From the NCBI RefSeq assembly GCF_013167455.1, contig NZ_CP038328.1: 64,000 nt of DNA. The stretch is one strand, 5' to 3'. The first letter of the stretch is position 1; every line of letters begins with the position of its first letter. Source of the stretch: Escherichia coli O157:H7. GTDB taxonomy: Bacteria > Pseudomonadota > Gammaproteobacteria > Enterobacterales > Enterobacteriaceae. Below the pieces are notes generated by a model, which saw nothing but the letters and a program-made list of their open reading frames with translations, was not told where the DNA came from and made no database searches. The translations under genes and the position numbers were made by a program. Shown here piece after piece: positions 14,564 to 28,520 of the stretch.

Positions 14564-15463
14564 ATGAAAATCGATCTTAATCTTTTACCCATTTTTATCG
14601 CGGTAGCAGAAGAGAGTAATTTTAGTAAAGCCGCCGCACGGCTGGGCGTTACCCGTTCAGCGGTCAGTCAGGGAATAAGACGCCTTGAAGATGCATTCGG
14701 GACAATGCTTGTAATGCGGACCACGCGCTCAGTTAATTTGACAGAAGCGGGAGAACGGCTGCATAAATCGCTGTCATTACCTTTATCCGGTATTGAGGCA
14801 GCGTTCGAAGAGATGGTTTCTGACCATGTGCCACGCGGACTTCTCAGAATCGCGGTGACGTCAATAGCTGAAGAATTTCTTTCAGGTCCGCTAATCGCTT
14901 CGTTTGCAGCAGCCAATCCAGCCGTTACGCTTGATATTGTTGTCACGGATGAGGAATTCGATATCGTGGCCGCAGGTTACGATGCTGGCGTAAGGCTCGG
15001 AGAGGTCATTGAAAAAGACATGATTGCTGTGCCCCTTACCGGCAGGCAGCGTGAAATGGTCGTTGCCTCTCCCTCCTATCTCGCAGCCAACAGCACACCT
15101 GTTCATCCGCGTGAACTTGTGAATCATAAGTGTATCGGCTGGCGTCAGTCCCCGGAGGTTGCGCCTTATCGCTGGCCATTTGAAGAAAACGGGAGAGCTT
15201 TCGACCTTGCGATTGAACCGCAGATTACGACTAATGATCTGCGTCTGATGTTGAGGCTGGCTCTTGCCGGCGGAGGAATAACAATTGCCACTCAGGAAAC
15301 TTTCAGGCCGTATATTGAAAGCGGTAAGCTTGTATCTCTGCTTGATGACTTTCTTCCACAATTTCCGGGCTTCTATCTGTATTTCCCACAGCGTCGCAAT
15401 ATTGCACCAAAGCTCCGCGCTCTGATTGACCACGTTAAGGAATGGCGGCAGCAATTGGCTTAA
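14564..15463 (+). CDS. LysR-family transcriptional regulator (divergent from SDR gene)
   Basis: HTH (FSKAAARLGVTRSAVSQGIRRLEDAFGTMLVMRTTRSVNLTEAG); 299 aa; classic divergent LysR-target arrangement. Confidence 0.8.
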   Translation: MKIDLNLLPIFIAVAEESNFSKAAARLGVTRSAVSQGIRRLEDAFGTMLVMRTTRSVNLTEAGERLHKSLSLPLSGIEAAFEEMVSDHVPRGLLRIAVTSIAEEFLSGPLIASFAAANPAVTLDIVVTDEEFDIVAAGYDAGVRLGEVIEKDMIAVPLTGRQREMVVASPSYLAANSTPVHPRELVNHKCIGWRQSPEVAPYRWPFEENGRAFDLAIEPQITTNDLRLMLRLALAGGGITIATQETFRPYIESGKLVSLLDDFLPQFPGFYLYFPQRRNIAPKLRALIDHVKEWRQQLA

Positions 15464-15589
15464 ATGTCTGCACCTGCATTGCCTGATGTCAGAACAGTAT
15501 TTTGATTAATTGCCAGGGTTACAATGGCACAAATGCGGCACAGGAGGAAACGTGGTGTATTTAAATATGGGGTAACTACTTGATTTAAA

Positions 15590-15608
15590 TGGTGCGATAA
15601 TAGGAACC
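15590..15608 (-). repeat. Degenerate direct repeat of the tRNA-Thr 3' end (distal att of the P4-like island)
   Basis: TGGTGCGATAATAGGAACC matches TGGTGCCGATAATAGGAGTC at 28475 with one deletion and two mismatches. Confidence 0.45.
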
Positions 15609-16138
15609 AATAATCGCCACCAACACAATGATTTTAATACATAAATTAAAATAGAAGATTTAAACTACACACACCCCTATACACATTGGTGAAGGCGTTC
15701 GCTTTCCGCGCATTCTCAAGGCAGAAAAAACTTTTTTTGGGGGAAAACTGTTCATACTACTCATTGTGTTTTTTTTCATTAATATTCAAAAAGATATGAA
15801 ATTAACGATTGATAAGAAGTGAACACTTTACTGTTCACCTTGACTGATTAATAAGTGCATAAAAACCTAATTTTTGAGCACGGAAGGTATTTGTTCCTTA
15901 CCCCATTTTTTCTCTTTAGTCCAGTACAACAAAAAATGCGCCCAACAGAAAACTGTTTTGAATTTAAATGCAATCGCTTTGTAGTGATTGTAACGTAAGT
16001 TGATTTGATGGGTGCGATTTTGTTTAGCGATAATGGTATGTTGTAAAAATCATTTCGTTGCAATAAAATTGCATCGCTACATTTTATAGACAATATCAAT
16101 TAAATTTTAATACTCATTATTAATTTTGAGGCTAACAA

Positions 16139-17095
16139 GTGACTAGTTATTCAAACTTTTCCAATCAAATAAAAGAAACCATCAATAATAAATTCGATCA
16201 TGAAATTCATGATTGGGACATTATAAAAAACTCAATCACAACTTTAATAAATAAAAATATCCATGGTGCAGGTAGAAATATCGTTGATTTTATAGATTTA
16301 GGTAACTGGGATTTTATTTCAAACTTTTCCTTTGATGACTCTACAAGAAGACTTGAATTAGAGTGGCACCCCAATGATAAATTCCATATATATATTGAGT
16401 CCGTTGTGTTTGTCGAGTTTAATGACACTATATATGCTTTCTTAAAGGGATACTATCACAATCAGTTATCTCTAAATAGAATATATAATACAAAATGCTC
16501 TTCATGTTCATTTGAAAACTCAGGTTCTTATATGGTAGACGTTTATAGAACGGTTAAAAGAGTAAATGAGACAATCCAGACCCCAAATATAAATTGCTAT
16601 ACTACATGTATTTTAACAAGGCCCGCAAATGGTCATGTTACATCTACAGGCTTCTCACGAAACCTCATGGATGCGATAAATATTTCATTAGCAGAGCACA
16701 AAATAGCCTCTTTACATAATGAAGTCATGAGTATTGAGGAATATGATCGTGATTCTTTACAAGAGAAAGGAAATACTGCCAGGAGATATTTAGAATATAT
16801 TCTCATGCTTGTTAATATTCGTATAATGCATTTAAACAACGTTCAATACCAAGAGCAAATGCTAGGTAGTTTAGTTTCTGTTATTGAGGCTCTGGACTAT
16901 GAACCATTAATGAAAAATGATGTTGAAATTACAAAGGACATCCTTAATGCTTGCAGCCACCACGGGGGGGTTAGAATTGAAAAGAAAGATGTAATTTTTT
17001 CTTTGGAAGTTATTGAAAACTTAATTAAAGCCATAAAGAAAACCGACATAAATAAATTACAACTCGATGGGATGTTTAAATCAATTCAAAAATAA
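16139..17095 (+). CDS. Hypothetical protein, very AT-rich orphan cargo gene inside the satellite island
   Basis: 318-aa ORF with GTG start, no recognisable motif, Asn/Ile/Lys-rich; lies between the distal att repeat and the primase 3' end. Confidence 0.45.
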   Translation: MTSYSNFSNQIKETINNKFDHEIHDWDIIKNSITTLINKNIHGAGRNIVDFIDLGNWDFISNFSFDDSTRRLELEWHPNDKFHIYIESVVFVEFNDTIYAFLKGYYHNQLSLNRIYNTKCSSCSFENSGSYMVDVYRTVKRVNETIQTPNINCYTTCILTRPANGHVTSTGFSRNLMDAINISLAEHKIASLHNEVMSIEEYDRDSLQEKGNTARRYLEYILMLVNIRIMHLNNVQYQEQMLGSLVSVIEALDYEPLMKNDVEITKDILNACSHHGGVRIEKKDVIFSLEVIENLIKAIKKTDINKLQLDGMFKSIQK

Positions 17096-17227
17096 ACATC
17101 ATCTAACAATGAATTAGATGCATTTTCCGCTGACGCCTTAGCATATAACTTTTAAATTTTATCGATATATATTTTGAGATAATTTCCTGTAGCGGATTTA
17201 AGACCGGCACAGCCGGTCTTAGGTCAG

Positions 17228-19618
17228 TTATTTCGCTGCAAACTCATCGCATTTTGGCAACCAGTCAGCATTGCTTTCCTCTCTTAGGGCCAGATTAGTC
17301 TGCATTCCTTGATTGGTCCGTCGTTTCTCATACTGCAGCCCATATTCCTTGAGCATTAACGGTAGCCCCTTGCCAAACATGGTCAGACTGAGCGTATTTT
17401 TATAGCCGTTAGCCTCCATGTAGACCAGATAGGCATGGTAGAGGTAAGTTCGAGGCTGACGTGGAACAATATTAGCGTTCCCCATAAACATGCCCGTGGT
17501 GTCAGGTAGGACCTCAAGGTAGCCGCAAAAATCAAAAGCTGAATCAGCATCACGTTTGATGGTGAGCGCTTCATCGGAGTTCTGCTGTGACTGAAGCAAT
17601 GTCCTGGCACTCATTGGGTCGCTGAAACGCTGCATAAGCTGGCGAACAATCACCGCTAGCTCACTGGCAATTTTCTCTTTGAGCTGGGTATCGCGTTCCT
17701 CCGGGGCTATCTGGTCGGGGAAATGCAGGATCACCCTTCGGCGTGAAACTCCACCACTACGATCAGTGAAGCGCATCGGATTATTGTTCACAGCCAGGAT
17801 GACCGCCGGGATGTGGGTTGAATAGGCGTTCTGATATTTGGGATCAACGGATACCGCATCGCCGCCAGTGATGGCTTTTAGTCCGGCCCCGTCACCGCTC
17901 CACTTTTCCTGGTCGGGAAGTCGAATCAGTGAAAAACCTATTAACGCAGCTCGTTCTCTTGGCGACTCAAGCATTTCAATGGTTGCCGAGGTCGCGTTAT
18001 CTTCACCCGCCAGCATGGTTGCTATTTCAGCAAGAATACTCTTTCCACTTCCGCCAGGGCCAGTGACCTCCAGAAACAGCTGCCAGTCATAACGGTTAGC
18101 CAGCACCATAAACAATGCAGCCAGAATAATGTCCCGTTTTTCAGGATTAAAACCTGCGGCACGATCCAGCCAGCGCCAGAATGCCGGGGCATGGGTTTCC
18201 AGTGACTCACCGTCAACGGGCTGCGTGTAATCCACCTCGCACAGCGTACGTAACCAGTGCTTCTTATCGTGCGGGCTGAACAATCCTGTCCGGGTATCGA
18301 GCACACCGTTGCGAAATCCGATAAGTTGCCGCGCCGGATTCTGCTGTTGCGGAACGATCAGTTTGAGGGTTTCCACGAGAGACGCAATTTTCGCGGATGA
18401 AAAAGGTGCGTCGAGGCGCTGAAACAGCGCAGCGACATCACGGGCAAAATCGGCGTAATAGATAACTTTCCAGGCCCCCGCCTCATAGCGTGAAAGGAGC
18501 TGCCCGTTCGGGTCTACTGCCAGTGAATTTTTATAGTGATCCACTACCCTCTGCGCTTTTTCGCTGACGCTCAGCGCGGTAAATTCAGCTTCGCTCATTG
18601 TGTCGAAGGGGCTGGCAACAGCTGGTTTTATTACTTCATGAATTGCATGCCGGGTGGCTTCTTCGCCGTTTTGCGTGAATGCATCGTTCCAGTCACCAAA
18701 CACAGGCGGGAGCGCCATTGTGCAATTGCAGGCCCCGGTAACAGCTGCGCCCCTTGTTTGCCCCGCACCGTTGAGATCGCGGTCAGCAGCAATAATTATC
18801 TGGTGCGTTGGGTACTCACTGCAGGCAATGCTCGCCAGGGAAAGGAAATTGACGGACGAAAAGGCCACCATGACAGCATCGCCAGTCAGATAGTTGATAG
18901 TAAGTGCGGTGGCATATCCTTCCGCTATCCAGAGCCGTTTGGCTGCTTTGGCAGTACCTTCAACCAGGTAAAAGGCATTCTTAACCTGACCGCCTTTAAG
19001 GAAGCATTTGCCCCCATTAGCGTTGATTAACTGCAGATTTACCAGCTCTCCATCTGCATACAATGGAACGACAAGATCTCCCGCGCGAAATGCCACACCA
19101 CCGACTTTATGCATAGCGGTTAATTCCCGGCAAGGCAGTGCAGGAAACCCTTTACTCGTCAGATAGGCATTGCCAGTGGTCTGGCGGGACTTATCAAACA
19201 AACGGGCAGCCAGCACTGCTGCAGCTTTTCTCCCGTCCTCTTTTTCAGGAGAACCAGATTCAAGCATTCCCTGAGATACTGGCAGCAGGTTTCCGATAAT
19301 GCCGTTTATTCTGTCTGCCGCTTCACTAATGCCTACATCCAGTACTTTACTTACAAGCGCCAGGCCATCACCTGCCCCGCACTGGTTACAGAACCACGTT
19401 CCCCGCCCTTCCTGGTCATCAAATCGAAAGCGGTCTTTCCCGGCACAGACCGGGCAGGGCTGGTGCCGATTTTTCAGTACATTTACGCCCAGCGCAGGTA
19501 AAATTCTTGACCAGTGACCCCGAGCTGCTTTCTCAGCCTGGCTAACTTTCATTCCTGACATTGTGCGGCCCTCCTTAGTGCAGCGCTGGTTTGTTGAGGT
19601 GACGGGAACAAAGTTCAT
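17228..19618 (-). CDS. P4 alpha-like primase/helicase (N-terminal start uncertain)
   Basis: Zinc-binding [14 protein letters not shown]...CNQCG motif, primase/Toprim region and P-loop ([11 protein letters not shown]) in a roughly 780-aa protein. Confidence 0.85.
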
Positions 19619-19898
19619 CCATGACCGTCATTCCGAGCAGTGAGAGAACCGGACAGGCTTTAAGCGGCCCCGACTCCATCAGATCCGAAAGCAACGCGCA
19701 GGCAATTTCCAGCCCTCTTTGCTGCCCATGCTGGCGCAGATAGAACCCTTCCAGCTCGCGGGCTATGGCATCTTCAAGTTCAGCGAGCGTCAGGCCGGAA
19801 TAACGTTCCTGATGATTGCTTAGAGCCAGCCAGGCACAGGCAACGGCACGGCGATACAGAGCGGCACGAAGTGCCAGAAGAGATTCACAGCATATCAT
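19575..19898 (-). CDS. Hypothetical satellite-phage protein upstream of primase
   Basis: 107-aa ORF with start overlapping the stop of the upstream ORF; left-operon position. Confidence 0.35.
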
Positions 19899-20119
19899 CA
19901 GGCCACCTCCGCATTCATCAGGTCGTCATGGCAGCGTTGCACCACTCCATCCAGTTGCTCTGTCATCAGATAAATGAGGGAAACCAGTTGTTCGCATTGG
20001 GCACCTGCTGGCTTTTCATAACAGTCCTGCAGGGCTGCCATGCCAGTTACATACTCACCCACATTGCGTAAATGTTTCAGCCTTACAACATCGTCGTAGG
20101 AAATCTCAAACTGGTTCAT
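19898..20119 (-). CDS. Hypothetical small satellite-phage protein (epsilon-like position)
   Basis: 73-aa ORF translationally coupled to downstream ORF. Confidence 0.35.
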
Positions 20120-20669
20120 AGCGTCACCTCCCCGGCAGGCAGCCGTGCAGAAAGGGAGAGTACATAATCTCGGACTAGCAAACGGCGCGCGGAACGCTCA
20201 TCGCAGGAGACAGTGCGAAGCATACAGATGCGGGGGTGAGTGTCAGCACGGCGGATTGCGGCAAACACAAAGACATATTGCGGGTGTGACGGGGTGAGGA
20301 TTGTAGCCATGATGGCAGCCTCCAATAAGTAGCGGTTATTGCTACCACCGGAAACGCCAATTTCACTGGTGGCAGCCCGAACGGGGTTGGCGTAACCGGC
20401 CTTATTGGAAACCGGCCAGCCCGAAGGCTGCCCCGCCCGGACTACCATTATCTCGATAGAACCATGGTGTAAGCATAAACACCACAGCCCTGAAAATGGT
20501 TGTGCCTGAGCTACGACGTAAAAAAAGACGCAAGGGGCGTCAATTGTCGCCAATAAGTTATACGGAACGCCAATTCCGGCTGCCGATTTTGCGACAGCGG
20601 AAAAACTATACCTGGAAATGACGACAGTAAGCAAGCCAGAATAAAGGTATTTAATGTATGCAGGTATCA

Positions 20670-20930
20670 TCATGCATCACATCCCCGCCCACGGGCGCTG
20701 ATGCGGTCCGCCATCCATGCGCTGACCTCAGACTGTGCCCAGGCGACATTTTTACCGCCAAGCGGGATCTGCTTCGGAAACGCATCGCGGCTGATCAGGT
20801 CGTAAACGGTCGAACGGGACAACCCGCATAAGTGCATCACCTCAGGCAGGCGTAAAAATCGCTCATGATGGTTCGATACAGGAAATAATGGCGCAGCAGG
20901 AGCTGGCGCAGACACAGAAATATTACGCAT
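20670..20930 (-). CDS. alpA: AlpA-family phage transcriptional regulator / excisionase-like
   Basis: [40 protein letters not shown] matches AlpA/MerR-like HTH. Confidence 0.7.
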
Positions 20931-21863
20931 TTATCTACCCTCTTTAATTTCCACAACAGTCCGGATGAATTTATCCGGGTTCAGGTAGTTCCTTATTATG
21001 TGTATATAAACCACCTGCGCACGCATTTTTTATTTAGCGTCACATATTGATTTTATGGAATTTAAAGCCCGATTAAACCATATAAAATGACATAATAAAT
21101 ACCATGCCTGCGGACTATAAATACAGGAGCATTAATAGGAACTACCATTCACCCAGGGTTTACTATCCTATGGGTCATTGCACCTGATAGTGCTAACCCC
21201 ACCGCCAATACAGCAAGGCAGTACAACTTCTACACGAGGCCTTGCATTGCAGGCCCCAATTTCCGGGCATATTTTTGAATCGCATCCAACTTATAAACAT
21301 TGGGCCTGCATAAAAACCTTGATATTAAATAACATCACCTTAAATCGTAAAATATATCCGAATGAATCCATAAAGAACCGGACAGATCTAGTTTTATAAA
21401 AATCAGTATGAAATGCAACACCATGGCCAGAGGCGAAAATGTTATTCCCCGGCAAAAACATGCAGTCTATTTATGTGCCTGTTGAATACTCCTGAATAAG
21501 GGTGAATAGTGGTGAGGAGCAAAAAACAAATAGCTACGAGGAATAAAAAAACCACCCATTATGAAAAAATACCATAAATAATTTTATTCCCATGTGAACA
21601 GTTATGAACAGTCGATGAATACTGCCATGCCAACCCTTCACCTTATAACCTTCTGTATTACCTATTTTTTTTACCTAAGTGAATAGTAGTGAATAGTTAA
21701 GGTAAGTCTGAAACAGCCTTAGTTAAACGAGGCCTTTTCTGGCTAGCCAAAAGAGGTCCGGGGCGGTTCAGTCTTTGTCTTGTCGCTCGCACAATGGCGT
21801 TCAATGGCAGCTTTGTATGCATCACAGCACAATTGACACCACGACAAACCACTAGGTGCTGAC

Positions 21864-22616
21864 ATGACAATCCCAGAACAGAACAATAACCCGATCGTTG
21901 AAATTTCTATCCCTGTTTCGACGCAACAGGCGCTTGAGAAAGTGAATGCCACCAAATCTGCATGGCTTGAAGCACGTCGTCAGCAAAAAGCGGCAGCGGA
22001 TAATATTGCGACAATCCGCCAGCGCCGCGCTGAAATGGAAGCCACGACGAACGCCCTGAATGAGGAGTGGCGCACGCTATTTCGTGAAAGTCAGGGCGTA
22101 GTCTCAAAGGAAATGAAAAAACTGCGCACGGAAATTGCGCTGGGACGAGAAACGCTTGAGGATTTTGATGAGCTGCTGGCGGCTCAGGAAAGCGAAAATG
22201 CACTTTTGCCGCAGGAGGCTGCGGAATTAGCCGGAAAGTATATCCACGCGCACGACACCCTTGTGGGTATTCGCGCAAAACAAATCTGGGAAGATTTTAT
22301 GCAGTCGCATGGAAAAGCACTAATCCAGACACTAAGCCTGCTCAAATCAACAATGGGCAGGGAAGCCAGCGCAGTTGTCGGTGTGGTGCATTCAGTTAAT
22401 GACCCGGACACACTGCTGAAAGATTTTATTCATAAACATATCACCAGACCGGCTCTGACTAACGATGCGATGCCCGAACAGGACCCCGTGTTTAAACTGG
22501 CGGGAGTTGCCCCGGATTATGCGGCCCGTCTGGATTTCAGTAATAAACTCTCTCCAGCAGCTATGCATAAAATGAAGGTTCGTCAGGAACGTGCTGAGAA
22601 GGAGAAAGCAGTATGA
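21864..22616 (+). CDS. P4 Sid-like (capsid size determination) or Psu-family helical protein
   Basis: 250-aa strongly alpha-helical protein, first gene of the rightward satellite operon; size matches Sid. Confidence 0.4.
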   Translation: MTIPEQNNNPIVEISIPVSTQQALEKVNATKSAWLEARRQQKAAADNIATIRQRRAEMEATTNALNEEWRTLFRESQGVVSKEMKKLRTEIALGRETLEDFDELLAAQESENALLPQEAAELAGKYIHAHDTLVGIRAKQIWEDFMQSHGKALIQTLSLLKSTMGREASAVVGVVHSVNDPDTLLKDFIHKHITRPALTNDAMPEQDPVFKLAGVAPDYAARLDFSNKLSPAAMHKMKVRQERAEKEKAV

Positions 22617-23164
22617 TGGCCCGAGTCACTCCAGACCAAGCGCTTATCAGTTTTAGAAATGCCCGTATTCTGTGGGCTGGACATAGTGAGAGCCGAAAAG
22701 CCGTTGAACAACAGATAGAATCACTCCTCACTGCCATGGAAAAACCAGCAGATTATGCTCGACAGCTCGAATTACAGCGGGAACATCTGGATGTGCTGAA
22801 ATGGCAAATTAACTGTGCTGCGCGCGAATGCATTTACTCGCAGCATCAACTGATGGAGGCCTGCACAGAAGACGCTCTCAGCAATTTTATGCAGGCGAAT
22901 GGAGCAGCCCTGACATCTGCACTGGCTCCGTTCCTGAAGGGGCGCGGAGGGGTTGACGTTGCGTCCCGTATATTACGCAATGCTCTGGTTCGCCAGCTGG
23001 CAATAACACCGCCTGAAATTGCCGGGGATTATCGTATGATTCTGGATGAATCCGGTGTGATGCCTGACCCCATGATGGTTCGTGATTGCCAGAGCTCTTA
23101 CACCCCTGCACAACAACTGCGCTTTCAGCAACGTCTGGATTACATTAACGGCATGCAGGAGTAA
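22613..23164 (+). CDS. P4 Psu-like (polarity suppression) protein
   Basis: 183-aa helical protein translationally coupled to preceding gene; size and position match Psu. Confidence 0.4.
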   Translation: MMARVTPDQALISFRNARILWAGHSESRKAVEQQIESLLTAMEKPADYARQLELQREHLDVLKWQINCAARECIYSQHQLMEACTEDALSNFMQANGAALTSALAPFLKGRGGVDVASRILRNALVRQLAITPPEIAGDYRMILDESGVMPDPMMVRDCQSSYTPAQQLRFQQRLDYINGMQE

Positions 23165-23169
23165 TATTA

Positions 23170-23442
23170 ATGGCACTTAAATGTCCCGAATGCGGTACGA
23201 CGGCACACGCCAGAACCTCCGCCTATGAAGCACCATCGGTTAAACGCTCATGGTATCAGTGCCAGAATCTTGAATGTTCCTACACATTTACCGCACTGGA
23301 AAGTGTGGATACGATAATCATGAAGCCCCGGCGCAATGAACAGGAATCAGAGAAAGCACAAATGCCGGAAAAACAACAGCAAACTCTCAATCGCTATGGC
23401 TCCGCGTCAAAGCTGTCAAGCCGTCAGCAAATTCCTGTCTGA
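23170..23442 (+). CDS. Ogr/Delta-family zinc-finger late transcription activator
   Basis: CPECG...AHARTS...YQCQNLECSYTF matches the Ogr/Delta C4 zinc finger. Confidence 0.8.
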   Translation: MALKCPECGTTAHARTSAYEAPSVKRSWYQCQNLECSYTFTALESVDTIIMKPRRNEQESEKAQMPEKQQQTLNRYGSASKLSSRQQIPV

Positions 23443-23462
23443 TTAGCAAAAAAAGCCCACGT

Positions 23463-23489
23463 AATCCCGGTCCAGTACTGGGATTTTTT
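23463..23489 (+). terminator. Rho-independent terminator after the ogr/delta gene
   Basis: AATCCCGGTCCAGTACTGGGATTTTTT: GC-containing palindrome followed by T6. Confidence 0.55.
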
Positions 23490-23851
23490 ACGCCTTTTCC
23501 CTGGCTGGCCTGAGAGCGCATGAGTGCATGTCTATAGCGCATGAAAACGCATGATTCTCATGCACCATTTTTGACGCGAAAGCCCTTGTGTGGTGGCTTC
23601 TGAGACGATTTGCGGAATGCATGAAAACCAGTCTGTTAAGCGAAGCGAGCAGGCGTGGGGGGCTGCGCGCGCTAAGGGGTTAGATTATAAAATATCAAAC
23701 GCCGGTGAGATCCATTATTGTGGAACCACCCGAAGGAAGTGTAGAGGCGAAAGTACCCAAAATAATTTTGCAAATTATTTAGAAATGAACTGAGCGCTCG
23801 AAACGAAATATAATTTCGAGCACCCCAATTAGCAGTTATATTTTTAATGTA

Positions 23852-24418
23852 TTAAACAGGATAAAAACCAGAGCTTCCATTCTTATTTAAGTTATGGATT
23901 TTATTTGCATCATTAATTTTTATTTGGAACGTCGGACCTTTATTCTCAAGAATTACAATCTGGAAATTATAGTCCCTTTTGATTAATGCGTGATAAAATG
24001 AATCACTGAGACTGACGCTATTAACATCCGATAGAGAACCCCCTCTATCTTTATCAAAGTGCGTCACTAATGGACTATCAAGCACAACAAATCCAATGAA
24101 TGGATTCCCTTTTCTTGATAAAAATTCCGCAAAGCAAATGGTAAATATAGCATGCATTACTGCACGGGTACCTTTACCAAACATTCCTCGGCGTTTCCCA
24201 TTGATATTAAAGTCATATGTATCTTCGTCAAATCGCACTTTGTTATCTTTAGAATTTTCAAAATTTATATCATTCAAAAAGTCTTGCATCGCTATTTCTA
24301 TATCATACAAATCAGCTACTGTTAAGGAGTCAAAGTCCTCGGCGGAGTATTTAAGTTCGTCAACATCATCTTCTTTATCTTGTAATGAAGATAGAATGCT
24401 ATGTTTTGTGTGATCCAT
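23852..24418 (-). CDS. Cargo ORF F: C-terminal ABC/SMC-like ATPase half (signature-like motif + Walker B-like)
   Basis: GKGTRAVMHAIFTICFAEFL followed by FIGFVVLDSPLVTHFD resembles ABC signature/Walker B/D-loop; start overlaps stop of ORF E (TAATG). Confidence 0.5.
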   Translation of the reverse strand: MDHTKHSILSSLQDKEDDVDELKYSAEDFDSLTVADLYDIEIAMQDFLNDINFENSKDNKVRFDEDTYDFNINGKRRGMFGKGTRAVMHAIFTICFAEFLSRKGNPFIGFVVLDSPLVTHFDKDRGGSLSDVNSVSLSDSFYHALIKRDYNFQIVILENKGPTFQIKINDANKIHNLNKNGSSGFYPV

Positions 24419-25008
24419 TAAAAGATTGTCTTTATATTCATAAAGTGATTCAAGAGATGAATGTATTGTTTTATATTTTTATCTTCTAACGTCTTAAAAT
24501 CACTTTTTTCTGATTGATAAATTTCATTAACATCATTTTTTCTTAACATAATTAATTCATGTTCGCGAACATTAGATCCGATTGATTCAATTAATCCTTT
24601 CAGCTGGCTTTTGATTTTCAATTTTTCTGCATTACACGACAAAAAACAATCATCATATGATATTTCATTTTCTTTTTTTTGCGGTGTATTACAGAACTCA
24701 CAATAAATATCTGCAAAATTATTTAAATAGAAATTCGCCTGTGATACAACATCTATTCTTTGTAGATCTATAAAGTATTGGTCTTTAAGAAGACTAAATC
24801 TTTCAATGAGTAATGATAAGTATTTTTCCCTGTCACTGATTGAATATAATTCATCACTTAACTCTTTTAATAATTGCTTCTTATCATCAAGTGCATCAAC
24901 AATACCTTTCAATATATCTTTCGATGATTCAATATCTTGCTCTACTTTCTCAAGTTCTCTTGAAACAATGACTTGATCATATTCAGGATAAATTAATTGC
25001 GCTTTCAA
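24418..25008 (-). CDS. Cargo ORF E: coiled-coil segment, likely middle part of the same ATPase
   Basis: 196 aa, K/E/L/D-rich helical composition; only TTG start; same frame as ORF D, separated by one TAA. Confidence 0.45.
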   Translation of the reverse strand: MKAQLIYPEYDQVIVSRELEKVEQDIESSKDILKGIVDALDDKKQLLKELSDELYSISDREKYLSLLIERFSLLKDQYFIDLQRIDVVSQANFYLNNFADIYCEFCNTPQKKENEISYDDCFLSCNAEKLKIKSQLKGLIESIGSNVREHELIMLRKNDVNEIYQSEKSDFKTLEDKNIKQYIHLLNHFMNIKTIF

Positions 25009-25038
25009 TTCCTCATAAATATTTGCAATTTGATTTTT

Positions 25039-25698
25039 TTAAAAATATCTTGCTTTTTTATTTGGTTTTTCTGCTAAGGAGTTAGTATCATCTCTCTGAG
25101 TTAAAAGGAATTTAAATTCAGACTTTCTTTTTGTCTCCTCGCTAGGAATATCAGAAAGAATTAACGACTTCTCAGTTAACACTCTTAATTCATCAATACA
25201 AAAAAATTCAAAAACATTATTAAGATTAAATTTATGAAGAGTATTACTTAAGTTTGTTCTTACTTTAGCCTCTTTGAAATTCAACCTACCATAAAAGTAT
25301 GATGAAAAACTCTTTTTAGACGAAGCACTTTTGGAAAAAACCATCAACAGATTAGCTTCACTAACATTTTCAATGCTCGAATCATATAATCTGTAATGGG
25401 CGCTATCCTGAAGAGACCTCTCAATTGTCATTACCCTACCTTGAAAATTAAATTCCAGATAGGCTAAATCATAACCTTGAGCATGATCGATATCTTTATT
25501 TTTTAGTTTTTCACTCCCTAATAAATATCGAATCAAATAATATATGTATGTTTTTCCAGAGTCAGAACCACCATATAAAATAGTCAATTTAGAACCAAAT
25601 TCAATTATAGCATCTAATTTATTGAATCCGGTTACCTTTATTTTTCTGAACGTAAAAAAATTGTCATTCATAATTAAATTCCATATCATATTTGCCAA
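25039..25698 (-). CDS. Cargo ORF D: N-terminal ABC/SMC-like ATPase head (Walker A)
   Basis: FRKIKVTGFNKLDAIIEFGSKLTILYGGSDSGKTYIYYL: SMC/AAA_15-like N-terminal strand plus Walker A GxxxxGKT. Confidence 0.55.
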   Translation of the reverse strand: MANMIWNLIMNDNFFTFRKIKVTGFNKLDAIIEFGSKLTILYGGSDSGKTYIYYLIRYLLGSEKLKNKDIDHAQGYDLAYLEFNFQGRVMTIERSLQDSAHYRLYDSSIENVSEANLLMVFSKSASSKKSFSSYFYGRLNFKEAKVRTNLSNTLHKFNLNNVFEFFCIDELRVLTEKSLILSDIPSEETKRKSEFKFLLTQRDDTNSLAEKPNKKARYF

Positions 25699-26137
25699 TT
25701 TTATTTTTTATAATTGATTGCAACTGCTCATCAGGAATATCACTATATAACTTAACCACCAAATTTATATTATGCTCCATCTGCGCAACATATTCATTAT
25801 GTAGAGAATTTGTAAATGCATATGTTTTTTCAGAAGCTTTATATACAAAACCACGATGTGTATAAATTTTTGAGGCTAGTTCATAGCCTTGCAACAAAGC
25901 CAATGATTCTAAAACAATCTCTCGTTTTAGGGCTAACTGAGCATCTCTACGGGGTATTGGAGGATGAAGACTAATCTCTTCAGGTAAAAAATCCTTAAGA
26001 TTTACTAAAATAAAATCAAAACAAATAAGCCGTTCAAGGCTTAATGAAGAAGGATAAATAGCGACGAGCACTTTCGCCATTCGACATGCCACTTCTAAAC
26101 TTGAATTATAAATTCTAACCATTATCTCACCGTCCAA
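25664..26137 (-). CDS. Cargo ORF C: hypothetical protein
   Basis: 157-aa ORF, AT-rich, overlaps neighbours by 16 and 35 nt; no recognisable motif. Confidence 0.4.
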   Translation of the reverse strand: MDGEIMVRIYNSSLEVACRMAKVLVAIYPSSLSLERLICFDFILVNLKDFLPEEISLHPPIPRRDAQLALKREIVLESLALLQGYELASKIYTHRGFVYKASEKTYAFTNSLHNEYVAQMEHNINLVVKLYSDIPDEQLQSIIKNKIGKYDMEFNYE

Positions 26138-26739
26138 ATTACTTCACCATCATTAACCAAATGATGGCATATTCCTTTTTTATCATTTGCTTCACATATT
26201 TTTGATAGTACTGAATGTGCAATTGGTGTCAGAACAGCCTGCTTCAAGACTGCATTACACCTAATAAATGCATAATTATGGTCTTCATAAAAGACGGGTT
26301 CAATTGAAGATGAAATGTAACATTTCAATGCTTTGAATACATCATCTTTAAATACTTCGCGGACAAAAACCTCAAGCGAAGATGCAAAATAAAAATCATT
26401 TCTACTATTATTAAAGTGTCGTCTGTATGGATCATCAAGCTCTAAGAAAGAACTATAAGTTTTATTTCCATGCTCTGAATAGGCTTGAAGCAGTGCATTA
26501 ACATATACAGACTCTTTTTTTGAATTGTATGTTGGAATTTCATTTGGAGGGATTCTCACGACATACAGCTCGTTAAAGTACTTAAAATAAAGGTGTGTAT
26601 TTGCAATATCATTTAAAATCAATGATAAGGGTAGAGAGTAAAAAATACTAAAATCAAAATCCTCAATATATTTTTTTATTTCATCATCTAATGGAATATC
26701 AATCTTTTTAGTTATTTTTTTGAAATTGCTGAATCCCAT
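26122..26739 (-). CDS. Cargo ORF B: hypothetical protein (possibly C-terminal part of a frameshifted gene with ORF A)
   Basis: 205-aa ORF overlapping ORF A by 28 nt across an A7 homopolymer. Confidence 0.4.
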   Translation of the reverse strand: MGFSNFKKITKKIDIPLDDEIKKYIEDFDFSIFYSLPLSLILNDIANTHLYFKYFNELYVVRIPPNEIPTYNSKKESVYVNALLQAYSEHGNKTYSSFLELDDPYRRHFNNSRNDFYFASSLEVFVREVFKDDVFKALKCYISSSIEPVFYEDHNYAFIRCNAVLKQAVLTPIAHSVLSKICEANDKKGICHHLVNDGEVIWTVR

Positions 26740-27017
26740 GAATCAAGGACTGCTTTTTTAAGCTCGTTTTTATTTTTCAATAAATTAGAAAATGTAGTAG
26801 ATAAATCATAGGGTGCCACAAAAAAGTACTTCTGAGGGATGGGATAATCACCATTCAGAGTAAAATAGATAAGTTTTCCAAACTCAACTACAACATCAGA
26901 GAACCCTAAACTTTTTTTGTACAGTTTGCATTGATAATTATCCCAAGAATAACCTTCTACGTTAGGATCCGATTTATATCCAACAACGTCTCTACCTTTA
27001 TCTCCAGCTCCTCCCAA
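26712..27017 (-). CDS. Cargo ORF A: Mrr-cat-like PD-(D/E)xK nuclease motif protein (no ATG start; possibly disrupted)
   Basis: GGAGDKGRDVVGY ... YQCKLYKK resembles the Mrr catalytic motifs (GDGGIDG ... QxK); frame stays open upstream to ATG GGA TGA TGA at 27087-27098. Confidence 0.4.
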   Translation of the reverse strand: MGGAGDKGRDVVGYKSDPNVEGYSWDNYQCKLYKKSLGFSDVVVEFGKLIYFTLNGDYPIPQKYFFVAPYDLSTTFSNLLKNKNELKKAVLDSWDSAISKK

Positions 27018-27130
27018 ACGTTCGCTCCACGGGTAATCATCTGATTTACAGACAATAAGCCAATCATGGACAAATACCTCCCATGTTCATCATCCCATGT
27101 CAATATTTCCGAAAGTGGTTGAGACACAAA

Positions 27131-28312
27131 TTAACTCCTTTTTAGTCTTTCAAATATCAAATTACTGTACCAGTCCATCATAGACTTCCTTCCACTAAAA
27201 TATTGAGCATGGTTATAAGTCCCCCTAATAGAATTTTTATCTACATGAGCCAACTGGATTTCAATCCAAGCACTCTCAAAACCTTGCTCATGCAGGATTG
27301 TAGAAAGGGTATGACGAAAACCATGTCCAGTGACTTTTCCTCCATACCCAATACGCTTAATGGCTTGATTTATACTCGCTTCGCTCATTGGCCTATTCGG
27401 ATCGTTCCGCCCTGGAAAAACATAACGATAGTTCCCTGTCATGATCTTGAGTTCATTGAGTAAATCTACCGCTTGAGATGATAAGGGCACAAGATGTGGC
27501 CTACGCATTTTCATCCTTTCAGCAGGAATTTCCCAAATAGCGTTATCCAGATCAAATTCTTGCCATAATGCCGCGCGTAATTCGATGGTTCTCACACCCG
27601 TAATCATCAGTAATTTCGTGGCTATCTGGACAAGCTTACTCCCGGAGTAACCCTCTAAGGCACGTAGAAAATCAGGTATCTCATCAGCTTTTAGGAATGG
27701 GAAATGATTGGATTGGTGTACTTCGAGAGCGCTGGAGAGATCAGCCGCAGGATTGTACTCCGCCCTACCCGTTGCAATTGCGTAGCGAAACACTTCGGAG
27801 CAACGCTGCCGCACTTTGCGCATTTTCTCCAACGCACCACGTTTCTCAATTTTACGCAGAACGTTCAGCAGCTCTAGCGGTTTAATCTCTCCCACAGGCC
27901 TTGTTCCGACATAAGGAAAAATGTCGTTCTTAAACGCTTCCATGATGTCTGATGCATATCCCGCCGACCATTTAGCAGATTTAAGTTGATGCCACTCTCT
28001 GGCTATCTTTTCGAAGGCGTTCTCTGACTCTGTTTGCATAGCTAGCTTTTGCTCTTTTCGAACCTCACTAGGGTTCTTTCCTTCTGCCACAAGTTTTCGA
28101 GCTTCATCACGACGGGAACGAGCATCGGCAAGGGTGATCGTTGGGTAAACACCAAGCGAGATCATTTTGGGTTTGCCGGCATAGCGATAGCGGAACCGCC
28201 AACTCTTGCTTCCATTAGGTTCTATAAGTAATGACAACCCTAGCCCATCTCCAAATGTATAGGCTTTAGCTTCAGGCTTAGCGCGGCGAATCTGCATATC
28301 GTTTAAAGGCAT
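27131..28312 (-). CDS. int: P4-type tyrosine integrase
   Basis: N-terminal P4-integrase-like region (AKAYTFGDGLGLSLLIEPNGSKSWRFRYRYAGK); C-terminal catalytic region with RxxHGFRHT..Y residues; adjacent to tRNA-derived att. Confidence 0.85.
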   Translation of the reverse strand: MPLNDMQIRRAKPEAKAYTFGDGLGLSLLIEPNGSKSWRFRYRYAGKPKMISLGVYPTITLADARSRRDEARKLVAEGKNPSEVRKEQKLAMQTESENAFEKIAREWHQLKSAKWSAGYASDIMEAFKNDIFPYVGTRPVGEIKPLELLNVLRKIEKRGALEKMRKVRQRCSEVFRYAIATGRAEYNPAADLSSALEVHQSNHFPFLKADEIPDFLRALEGYSGSKLVQIATKLLMITGVRTIELRAALWQEFDLDNAIWEIPAERMKMRRPHLVPLSSQAVDLLNELKIMTGNYRYVFPGRNDPNRPMSEASINQAIKRIGYGGKVTGHGFRHTLSTILHEQGFESAWIEIQLAHVDKNSIRGTYNHAQYFSGRKSMMDWYSNLIFERLKRS

Positions 28313-28474
28313 GTGTATAGGAATCCAGACCGAACAGGAACATATACACAATCCTATACACATTCAGTACCGGATTCTACTGGATGGTTACGGACTACTA
28401 TGGACTTAAAAGAATAAAAAATGTTATAAATCAGAGATTTTATGGACTAATACGGACGTTTGAGGAAGTTGAGA

Positions 28475-28520
28475 TGGTGCCGATAATAGGAGTCGAACCT
28501 ACGACCTTCGCATTACGAAT
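28475..28520 (-). repeat. 46-nt 3' fragment of tRNA-Thr (thrW-like): integrase-proximal att of the P4-like island, not an intact tRNA
   Basis: Reverse complement ATTCGTAATGCGAAGGTCGTAGGTTCGACTCCTATTATCGGCACCA is the anticodon-to-CCA part of tRNA-Thr(CGU) as recalled; 5' half absent. Confidence 0.7.

Follow-up and report, generated by a model that had tools for sequence, protein, structure and literature searches.

What does a lone, AT-rich gene do at the distal end of a P4-like satellite in Escherichia coli O157:H7? The gene in question, ECs_0304 in strain Sakai, lies at 16139..17095 on the plus strand of a 64,000-nucleotide stretch of contig NZ_CP038328.1 (the window), within the Sakai feature 'prophage Sp2, P4-like phage', which corresponds to 15606–28492 of the window and has the Sp1 remnant next to it. 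It encodes a protein of 318 amino acids that is called a 'hypothetical protein' in RefSeq (WP_000205213.1). A first-pass annotation of the sequence had proposed that the gene is single-gene cargo of the abortive-infection or anti-phage kind, with no recognisable domain. The results described here lead to a more specific proposal: with a probability of roughly 0.55, ECs_0304 is a single-protein, sensor-gated ribonuclease (RNase) of the HEPN type that acts by abortive infection.

The position of the gene is one point in favour of this reading. ECs_0304 is the sole gene between the attachment site (att) and the P4 alpha-type primase-helicase gene (17228..19618, minus strand, as annotated; alternatively 17228–19561), a conserved core gene that bounds the cargo slot. 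As the first-pass annotation had it, the gene is convergent with the primase gene (the gap is 132 bp), and the degenerate att repeat placed at 15590 as the other border is real: 15588–15607 repeats, in degenerate form, the 3' end of thrW, a tRNA-Thr gene. Most E. coli genomes have an intact tRNA-Thr gene, or its att remnant, abutting the sequence that runs up to about 15605 in the window, and ARAGORN found no tRNA in the window. Besides the main defence hotspot, flanked by integrase on one side and Psu/Delta on the other, P4-like satellites have a minor, less populated hotspot between primase and att; when thousands of satellites were mapped, this interval accounted for 7% of all their defence systems (preprint 10.64898/2026.02.27.708500).

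The content of this slot differs among related islands, as was found when presence and absence were compared in the way that the first-pass annotation had suggested. Among primase genes 77–92% identical to that of Sp2, similarity stops a few bases inside the 3' end. Three sister satellites with the same order of core genes carry, in the slot, two unrelated hypothetical genes, a SIR2-like gene, and nothing. The SIR2-like gene encodes 365 amino acids and is at the same thrW site in E. coli CFSAN064035 (L029, 3289–4386); its best match to a PADLOC SIR2 model has an E-value of 3.5e-9, and no complete system known to PADLOC includes it within the stretch shown. ECs_0304 thus has the location of P4 hotspot cargo, in an att-bounded satellite and in an interval that varies among satellites with the same core. 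Like the described defence cargo of P4 satellites (Rousset 2022, PMC9122126; preprint 10.64898/2026.02.27.708500), it is AT-rich and its slot is variable among sister elements; unlike that cargo, it is outside the main psu/delta-int hotspot, and its defence role is putative. Neither of these two studies names it or tested it.

ECs_0304 is a real gene under purifying selection. The listing of open reading frames (ORFs) and their translations gives the same lone plus-strand gene with a GTG start that had been noticed in the first pass. A Shine-Dalgarno sequence, GAGG, can be read 7 nt 5' of the GTG (16128..16131, plus strand), and the N-termini of homologues align at residue 1 of the product. 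The gene is far more AT-rich than the core genes, again as first described: its GC content is 31.3%, against 52% for primase, 51% for psu, and 50% each for the sid-like gene and the flanking LysR gene. The long AT-rich non-coding flanks are also there, 530 bp upstream and 132 bp downstream. At the base composition of the gene, a stop codon is expected every ca. 12 codons and the probability of 318 open codons is about 1.7e-12; the longest open stretch in 2000 shuffles of 15608–17227 was 142 codons, compared to 319 observed. The ratio of non-synonymous to synonymous substitution rates (dN/dS) is 0.06 relative to a homologue with 80% identity and 0.13 relative to one with 71% identity, with dS near saturation. 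The region 15400–17300 is 100% identical to many O157:H7 genomes, and 306 of 5426 complete E. coli genomes carry the gene. Identity is at least 99% in 305 of the 307 matching records. Among the matches listed, the hosts are all O157:H7, O55:H7 or unlabelled as to serotype, and each match is annotated as protein-coding without a pseudogene flag.

With sequence methods, the first-pass statement that no domain is recognised still holds: the product has no significant match in Pfam, NCBIfam, PHROGs or PADLOC, and sequence searches of the PDB with family profiles returned noise only, with no chain matched. The predicted structure alters that statement. An AlphaFold2 model built on a 22-sequence alignment is confident (predicted local distance difference test, pLDDT, 80.8; predicted template modelling score, pTM, 0.79) and has two parts. 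The product is a cytoplasmic, two-domain protein. Its N-terminal alpha/beta domain (residues 1–168; 16139..16642, plus strand) is modelled as two helices followed by a nine-strand sheet, and it has a conserved acidic/aromatic loop, V-D50-F-I-D53-x-G-x-W57-D58, as well as a conserved W76. The C-terminal domain (residues 170–318; 16646..17092, plus strand) is modelled as six helices, and by structure comparison this half of the protein has the HEPN fold – four helices in an up-and-down bundle, with an insert separating helices 2 and 3. HEPN domains provide the RNase in many defences of the abortive-infection type; their endoRNase activity is metal-independent and comes from a composite active site in a dimer. 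The structures that the C-terminal domain resembles most closely are the HepT-type toxins from MNT-HEPN toxin-antitoxin pairs. Full-length neighbours were found by Foldseek in AFDB50, with 316–364 aligned columns, template modelling (TM) scores of about 0.6 and E-values of 1e-10 to 1e-16; seven of these are called 'DUF4145 domain-containing' and two 'HEPN domain-containing', by automatic name only. There was no clear homology to a housekeeping or structural protein, an outcome that the first-pass annotation had set against its own proposal. Two candidate identities for the N-terminal domain were rejected. A PD-(D/E)xK nuclease does not fit, as E87 is not kept in distant members, and the DFIDxGxWD loop is not an EF-hand, as the spacing is unfit; the Pfam match to Cbl_N2 has an E-value of only 0.08.

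Four residues of the family are invariant in 41 sequences ranging down to 16% identity (R215, E219, H274 and G277), and D50, F51, D53, W57, D58, W76, N212, R216, G243, N270 and S273 are nearly invariant in the same sequences. The core pattern shared by 30 distant members is K-[AG]-N-T-x-R-R-x-x-E-x-x-L-K ... L-G-D-L ... N-E-L-S-H-D-S-G. The segment R215-R216-Y-L-E219 (16781..16795, plus strand) is the invariant R-x3-E of a 'GNTxRRxxExxL(K)' helix and matches Ex3[KR], a motif common to the HEPN superfamily (PMC3710099). E219 is invariant, and the residue four positions after it is always K in the homologue sets A2 and A5, whereas the enterobacterial subgroup has M, K or I there; the R, E and K of R-x3-E-x3-K are invariant in the distant sets. 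The segment N270-A-C-S273-H274 (16946..16960, plus strand) contains the family motif N-x-x-S-H, located where HEPN proteins have Rx4-6H. The histidine equivalent to H274 is catalytic in the DUF4145-type HEPN RNase RAZR (PMC13017515). Conservation of R215, E219, H274 and G277 together with N212, R216, N270 and S273 argues for an enzyme rather than a scaffold.

In the proposed mechanism, ECs_0304, which is the lone cargo gene in the minor primase-att accessory slot of Sp2, would encode an anti-phage effector of the abortive-infection type. The N-terminal alpha/beta domain with its D-x-x-D-x-G-x-W-D loop would be a sensor or autoinhibitory module that recognises a phage-derived protein, nucleic acid or small molecule. 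Recognition would free the HEPN domain at the C-terminus, which probably assembles into a dimer or larger oligomer with a composite site, and the freed domain is predicted to cut cellular RNA (for example tRNA, rRNA or mRNA), which would halt translation and block phage production. The putative site would be a non-canonical HEPN site, in which H274 (with N270 and S273) would stand at the Rx4-6H position and R215/E219, on the preceding long helix, would give the basic and acidic groups. Three single proteins with a HEPN and a sensor domain, RAZR/PD-T7-4, DARNA/PD-T7-3 and ApeA, are proven defences of the abortive-infection type (PMC13017515; preprint 10.64898/2026.01.26.701840), and RAZR/PD-T7-4 is activated by assembly on phage ring proteins (PMC13017515).

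Several results weigh against this proposal. The arginine of Rx4-6H is missing: the residue at −5 from H274 is L269 (A in distant members), N270 is at −4, and there is no Arg from −4 to −8, while an Arg is required in RAZR, DARNA and PrrC (PMC13017515, PMC1484252). None of 87 family members matches the Pfam HEPN/DUF4145 models, and the HEPN assignment therefore rests on predicted structure. For DUF4145 (PF13643), the tests were made at E <= 10 for ECs_0304 and at E <= 0.1 for sets A2 (16 sequences), A3 (41) and A5 (30), and membership by Pfam is not supported; because the structural neighbours are so named yet Pfam gives no match, the domain is filed here as a HEPN fold, DUF4145-like, with membership unproven by sequence. 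In PADLOC-DB v2.0.0, zero families match ECs_0304 at E <= 1, and 30 distant members gave marginal matches only (E >= 0.007). The family is small. When the literature was searched for the accession, the locus tag and peptide strings, no experiment on ECs_0304 or any homologue came up, and neither papers and supplements nor databases gave a name for the protein or its motifs. One homologue, in a Citrobacter integrative and conjugative element (ICE), has counter-defence genes as neighbours, so context alone cannot separate defence from anti-defence. Since there is no known phenotype and no match to a defence model, and the canonical HEPN arginine is absent, the function of ECs_0304 is one that we infer. 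The earlier idea of abortive-infection or anti-phage cargo is thus supported in part, and indirectly, by the predicted HEPN fold, the hotspot slot and the occurrence of homologues as single-gene mobile cargo, and left short by the missing defence-model match and arginine.

The first alternative is that, with the catalytic arginine lost, the HEPN fold of this protein is non-catalytic and serves to bind RNA or protein or to regulate, so that the protein would modulate gene expression of the satellite or the host instead of cutting RNA. The R of Rx4-6H is absent family-wide, inactive, binding-only HEPN clades are on record (PMC3710099), and a binding or regulatory role has been proposed for MtlR and for nucleotidyltransferase-fused HEPN domains. 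However, the inactive clades are said to lack conserved polar residues (PMC3710099), whereas in this protein no positions are more conserved across phyla than R215, E219, N270, S273 and H274. A survey of the superfamily argues that a HEPN domain whose conserved polar residues are of another kind may still be an RNase, those with none being binding modules, and clades that keep the H but not the R do exist, such as c2405 of the DUF4145-like group (PMC3710099). Nor would one expect a regulator specific to P4 biology to travel alone on ICEs, in lambdoid prophages and in chromosomal islets of many genera. This alternative is unlikely.

Several known HEPN proteins can be compared with ECs_0304. The c2405-type clade (PMC3710099) is a HEPN group of E. 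coli mobile DNA that, like ECs_0304, keeps the His and lacks the Arg, and its N-terminal domain is associated with abortive infection. That domain is AbiTii, whose Pfam model does not match ECs_0304. RAZR (PD-T7-4; PMC13017515) is a single-protein abortive-infection defence of E. coli consisting of a zinc finger and a DUF4145-type HEPN RNase. Its N-terminal domain is a Cys4 zinc ribbon, compared to the nine-strand alpha/beta domain of ECs_0304, and it needs R146 in R-x7-H, whereas the ECs_0304 family has no Arg near the His. ApeA (preprint 10.64898/2026.01.26.701840), also a single-protein defence, is a ligand-activated tRNA anticodon nuclease with N-terminal and Mid domains and a C-terminal HEPN. 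Common to ApeA and ECs_0304 are the single gene and the layout, in which an orphan N-terminal region without known ancestry precedes the HEPN domain at the C-terminus, but ApeA has roughly double the length, is mainly helical and possesses a canonical Arg/His site. The Pfam models HEPN_Apea and ApeA_NTD do not match ECs_0304, and weak Foldseek matches to 'ApeA N-terminal domain-containing' proteins (E-values of about 0.07–0.16) have TM scores, of about 0.26, that are not meaningful.

The triad that mutagenesis implicates in PrrC catalysis is Arg320-x3-Glu324 ... His356 (PMC1484252). The invariant R215-x3-E219 ... H274 of the ECs_0304 family has the same pattern, although the resemblance is one of pattern only. 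PrrC/RloC and ECs_0304 are alike in being found on mobile or defence DNA. PrrC and RloC combine an ABC ATPase with the HEPN domain, whereas ECs_0304 has no ABC ATPase domain and, in the window, no linkage to restriction-modification (R-M) genes. Neither Pfam nor NCBIfam finds a P-loop domain in ECs_0304, and the N-terminal domain is modelled as a beta-rich fold. Weak Pfam AAA_13 matches in two or three distant members are outside the R-E-H core, and the concatenated R-x3-E...SH cores of 30 members gave no AAA_13 match, which leaves the PrrC/RloC lead unsupported.

Homologues come from many genera. A word-indexed search found 36 homologue clusters at 90% identity, all 'hypothetical', with hosts in Escherichia, Citrobacter, Providencia, Pantoea, Pectobacterium, Proteus, Serratia, Enterobacter, Klebsiella, Salmonella, Buttiauxella and Aeromonas. 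When 1.84 billion representatives were searched exhaustively with a profile, 102 homologue clusters at 50% identity were obtained, and a repeat of the homology search with the family alignment added almost no members. The same two-domain architecture was found among Foldseek neighbours from Paenibacillus, Clostridium, Sporocytophaga, Phocaeicola, Synechocystis (Sll1401) and a planctomycete. The family of about 100 clusters reaches from Enterobacterales to Firmicutes, Bacteroidota and Cyanobacteria. Some distant members have extra domains (P0070, P0072, P0075, P0077, P0085, P0090 and P0103; P0049, P0086, P0126 and P0133). One distant group has an N-terminal extension of ca. 190 residues with 'LMYxGRGD' and weak Pfam DUF3775 matches in five of 16 sequences; another has a C-terminal extension of ca. 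250 residues with a conserved 'LV(I/V)DENG...YPV...W..GN.YVGK'. A structural neighbour of the latter kind, of 595 residues, is encoded in Phocaeicola vulgatus.

The homologues have 28–34% GC in every host, even in Aeromonas with 60% GC, and they are found in a variety of mobile contexts. The Aeromonas homologue is in a 32%-GC islet of the 60%-GC chromosome, and that of Proteus is in a variable chromosomal islet. An E. coli homologue with 45% identity is directly after a P4-type integrase gene at proBA-thrW, the Providencia homologue is directly after Ogr/Delta in a satellite remnant, the Pantoea homologue is in a lambdoid prophage, the Pectobacterium homologue is in a MobA (mobilisable) island at thrW, and a homologue with 31% identity directly follows a P4-type integrase gene in an integrase/AlpA island that adjoins mutS. 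The Citrobacter homologue is located, within the ICE, between an orphan N6/N4 methylase gene and ArdC, with a type I R-M system that includes an AAA_15/21 gene a few kb away.

Two of these contexts have neighbours of interest in their own right. Beside the 45%-identical homologue on the E. coli thrW island (L009, 11446–16327; also L010, L011 and L025) is a convergent three-gene block encoding a 387-amino-acid protein with a receiver-like N-terminal part, a 149-amino-acid Response_reg protein and a 1091-amino-acid Y4jQ protein (PF27260); this block may be an uncharacterised defence system. The Pantoea prophage homologue (L013, 8919–9974; L014, 8060–9115) is the only one with a possible operon partner, a 351-amino-acid ORF whose end is 27 nt upstream and in which the string 'YIGQA...RL..H' resembles GIY-YIG. 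At L014 it is adjoined by a DNA methylase/HATPase_c_3/Response_reg_2 block.

The second alternative is that ECs_0304 is a selfish toxin, an addiction or inter-element competition module whose own N-terminal domain is a cis-acting antitoxin and which stabilises the element or hits the helper phage or rival elements, instead of shielding the host population from lytic phages. The HepT-type toxins that are its closest structural matches belong to pairs of this sort, the gene is always on mobile elements and travels alone, and it has been kept intact although Sp2 is immobile in Sakai (PMC2669165). HepT toxins (MNT-HEPN, HepTA) and the proteins TTHA0636, AF0298 and HI0074 are, however, stand-alone domains of ca. 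120–150 residues with an Rx4H motif, encoded beside an MNT antitoxin, whereas ECs_0304 has an additional N-terminal domain of 168 residues, no MNT neighbour and no motif Arg. There is no operon ORF beside the gene in the window, and no conserved partner in eight loci, where the neighbouring proteins are mutually unrelated and the flanks of the homologues have no sequence in common. No tandem repeats and no Rfam matches are next to ECs_0304, the only Rfam matches being the expected P4 C4/isrK RNAs elsewhere in the satellite. A partner gene or an RNA antitoxin was rejected for these reasons: no antitoxin gene of the MNT or any other kind adjoins it, and the flanks have neither a conserved RNA nor repeats. 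The mechanism of a selfish toxin overlaps heavily with abortive infection in any case, and many such toxins prove to be phage defences. A purely selfish role is improbable.

A third alternative is suggested by the Citrobacter ICE, where the homologue is between an orphan DNA methylase gene and ArdC. Here the protein would be a counter-defence factor whose HEPN-type site destroys an immune signal (such as cyclic oligonucleotides) or immune RNA of the recipient and so aids establishment of the satellite, ICE or prophage. Some HEPN enzymes do degrade cyclic oligoadenylate signals, as noted in the DARNA preprint. But this is the one context that suggests such a role; most of the others are typical defence slots – after Ogr/Delta, after integrases, or in the primase-att slot that holds a SIR2-like gene in another satellite – and the protein has no similarity to a known anti-defence protein. 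This role is very unlikely.

The last alternative, a decaying remnant without current function, is scarcely credible: the neighbouring main-hotspot system of Sp2 is already a pseudogene and Sp2 is inactive in Sakai, but the frame is kept in all 306 carrier genomes, the listed matches have no pseudogene flag, dN/dS is 0.06–0.13, the AlphaFold2 model is confident, and the lone frameshifted copy fits assembly errors. That copy is the IMG/VR version of the O157 locus (UViG_2923272612_000005; L027, 905–1860), which appears frameshifted in many places. It was rejected as a pseudogene, as it is near-identical to the window; its frameshifts are almost certainly assembly errors, because they are mainly small indels, several of them in homopolymer runs.

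A bolder reading was also considered. The family could be an unrecognised class of single-protein immune RNases, with an 'arginine-less' two-helix HEPN site (R-x3-E; N-x2-S-H) that is switched on by a sensor domain with a fold new to characterised defence proteins, possibly binding a small molecule or cation through D-x-x-D-x-G-x-W-D. A less expected form of this idea is counter-defence by destruction of a recipient's immune signal or RNA. The idea is tentative and rather doubtful.

Other features around the gene concern its expression and the borders of the satellite. Two weak sigma-70-like promoter matches, at 16041–16069 and 16087–16114 (plus strand), were found by a consensus scan, with 9 of 12 positions matching in each; they are candidates only, because shuffled sequences give equally many matches. 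A terminator scan found a GC-rich hairpin with a 14-bp stem at 17195..17225, between the convergent stop codons of ECs_0304 and primase, which is likely to be a terminator common to the two genes.

The left border of Sp2 has two att-like copies. The outer one (15571..15607, minus strand), found by local alignment to thrW, reproduces the 3' end of that gene together with the flank downstream of it in degenerate form and corresponds to the left limit of Sp2 in Sakai. The inner one (15990..16036, minus strand), also degenerate, is 100 bp upstream of ECs_0304 and was found by aligning 15571–15598 with 15989–16018. ECs_0304 is therefore inside the satellite whichever of these copies is used. The two are separated by a 380-bp AT-rich spacer, in which a 22-mer (15666–15687) has 86% identity with 28343–28364, directly upstream of the integrase start. 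The spacer may be a relic of another P4-type element formerly integrated in tandem. At the right border, the junction with the Sp1 remnant, a perfect copy of the thrW 3' end (46 of 46 nt; 28475..28520, minus strand) is beside and just upstream of the integrase gene; thrW itself is left only as this 46-nt 3' fragment at the Sp2/Sp1 junction.

Two further regions of Sp2 are involved in immunity or defence. At 20365–20611 (minus strand), Rfam models match the C4 antisense RNA (84 bits), isrK (72 bits) and, slightly under the gathering threshold, the c4 a1b1 target (44.6 bits); with these three matched, the RNA-based immunity region of Sp2 is intact. The main Psu/Delta-integrase hotspot (23852–27017, minus strand, 30.5% GC) contains an 'ABC-three component' system. 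Its AAA/ABC ATPase is split into three ORFs (23852–24418, 24418–25008 and 25039–25698) and corresponds to the Sakai pseudogene ECs_0293. As its ATPase is broken, the main defence cargo of Sp2 looks inactivated, while ECs_0304 is intact.

HEPN-based single-gene defence cargo in satellite hotspots is already known, and what is undescribed here is the N-terminal domain and the R-less motif layout. As a defence gene, ECs_0304 is plausible rather than surprising, and a good candidate. A family profile would annotate proteins that are currently 'hypothetical', because the family is invisible to Pfam, NCBIfam, PHROGs and PADLOC. If the proposal is true, the minor primase-att hotspot of P4-like satellites would have in ECs_0304 its first functional example, and HEPN immune RNases would gain a new sensor domain and a non-canonical, R-less site layout. 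O157:H7 and O55:H7 strains would then carry on Sp2 a functional, previously unlisted anti-phage gene, which would bear on the phage susceptibility of the O157:H7 pathogen and on its phage-based control.

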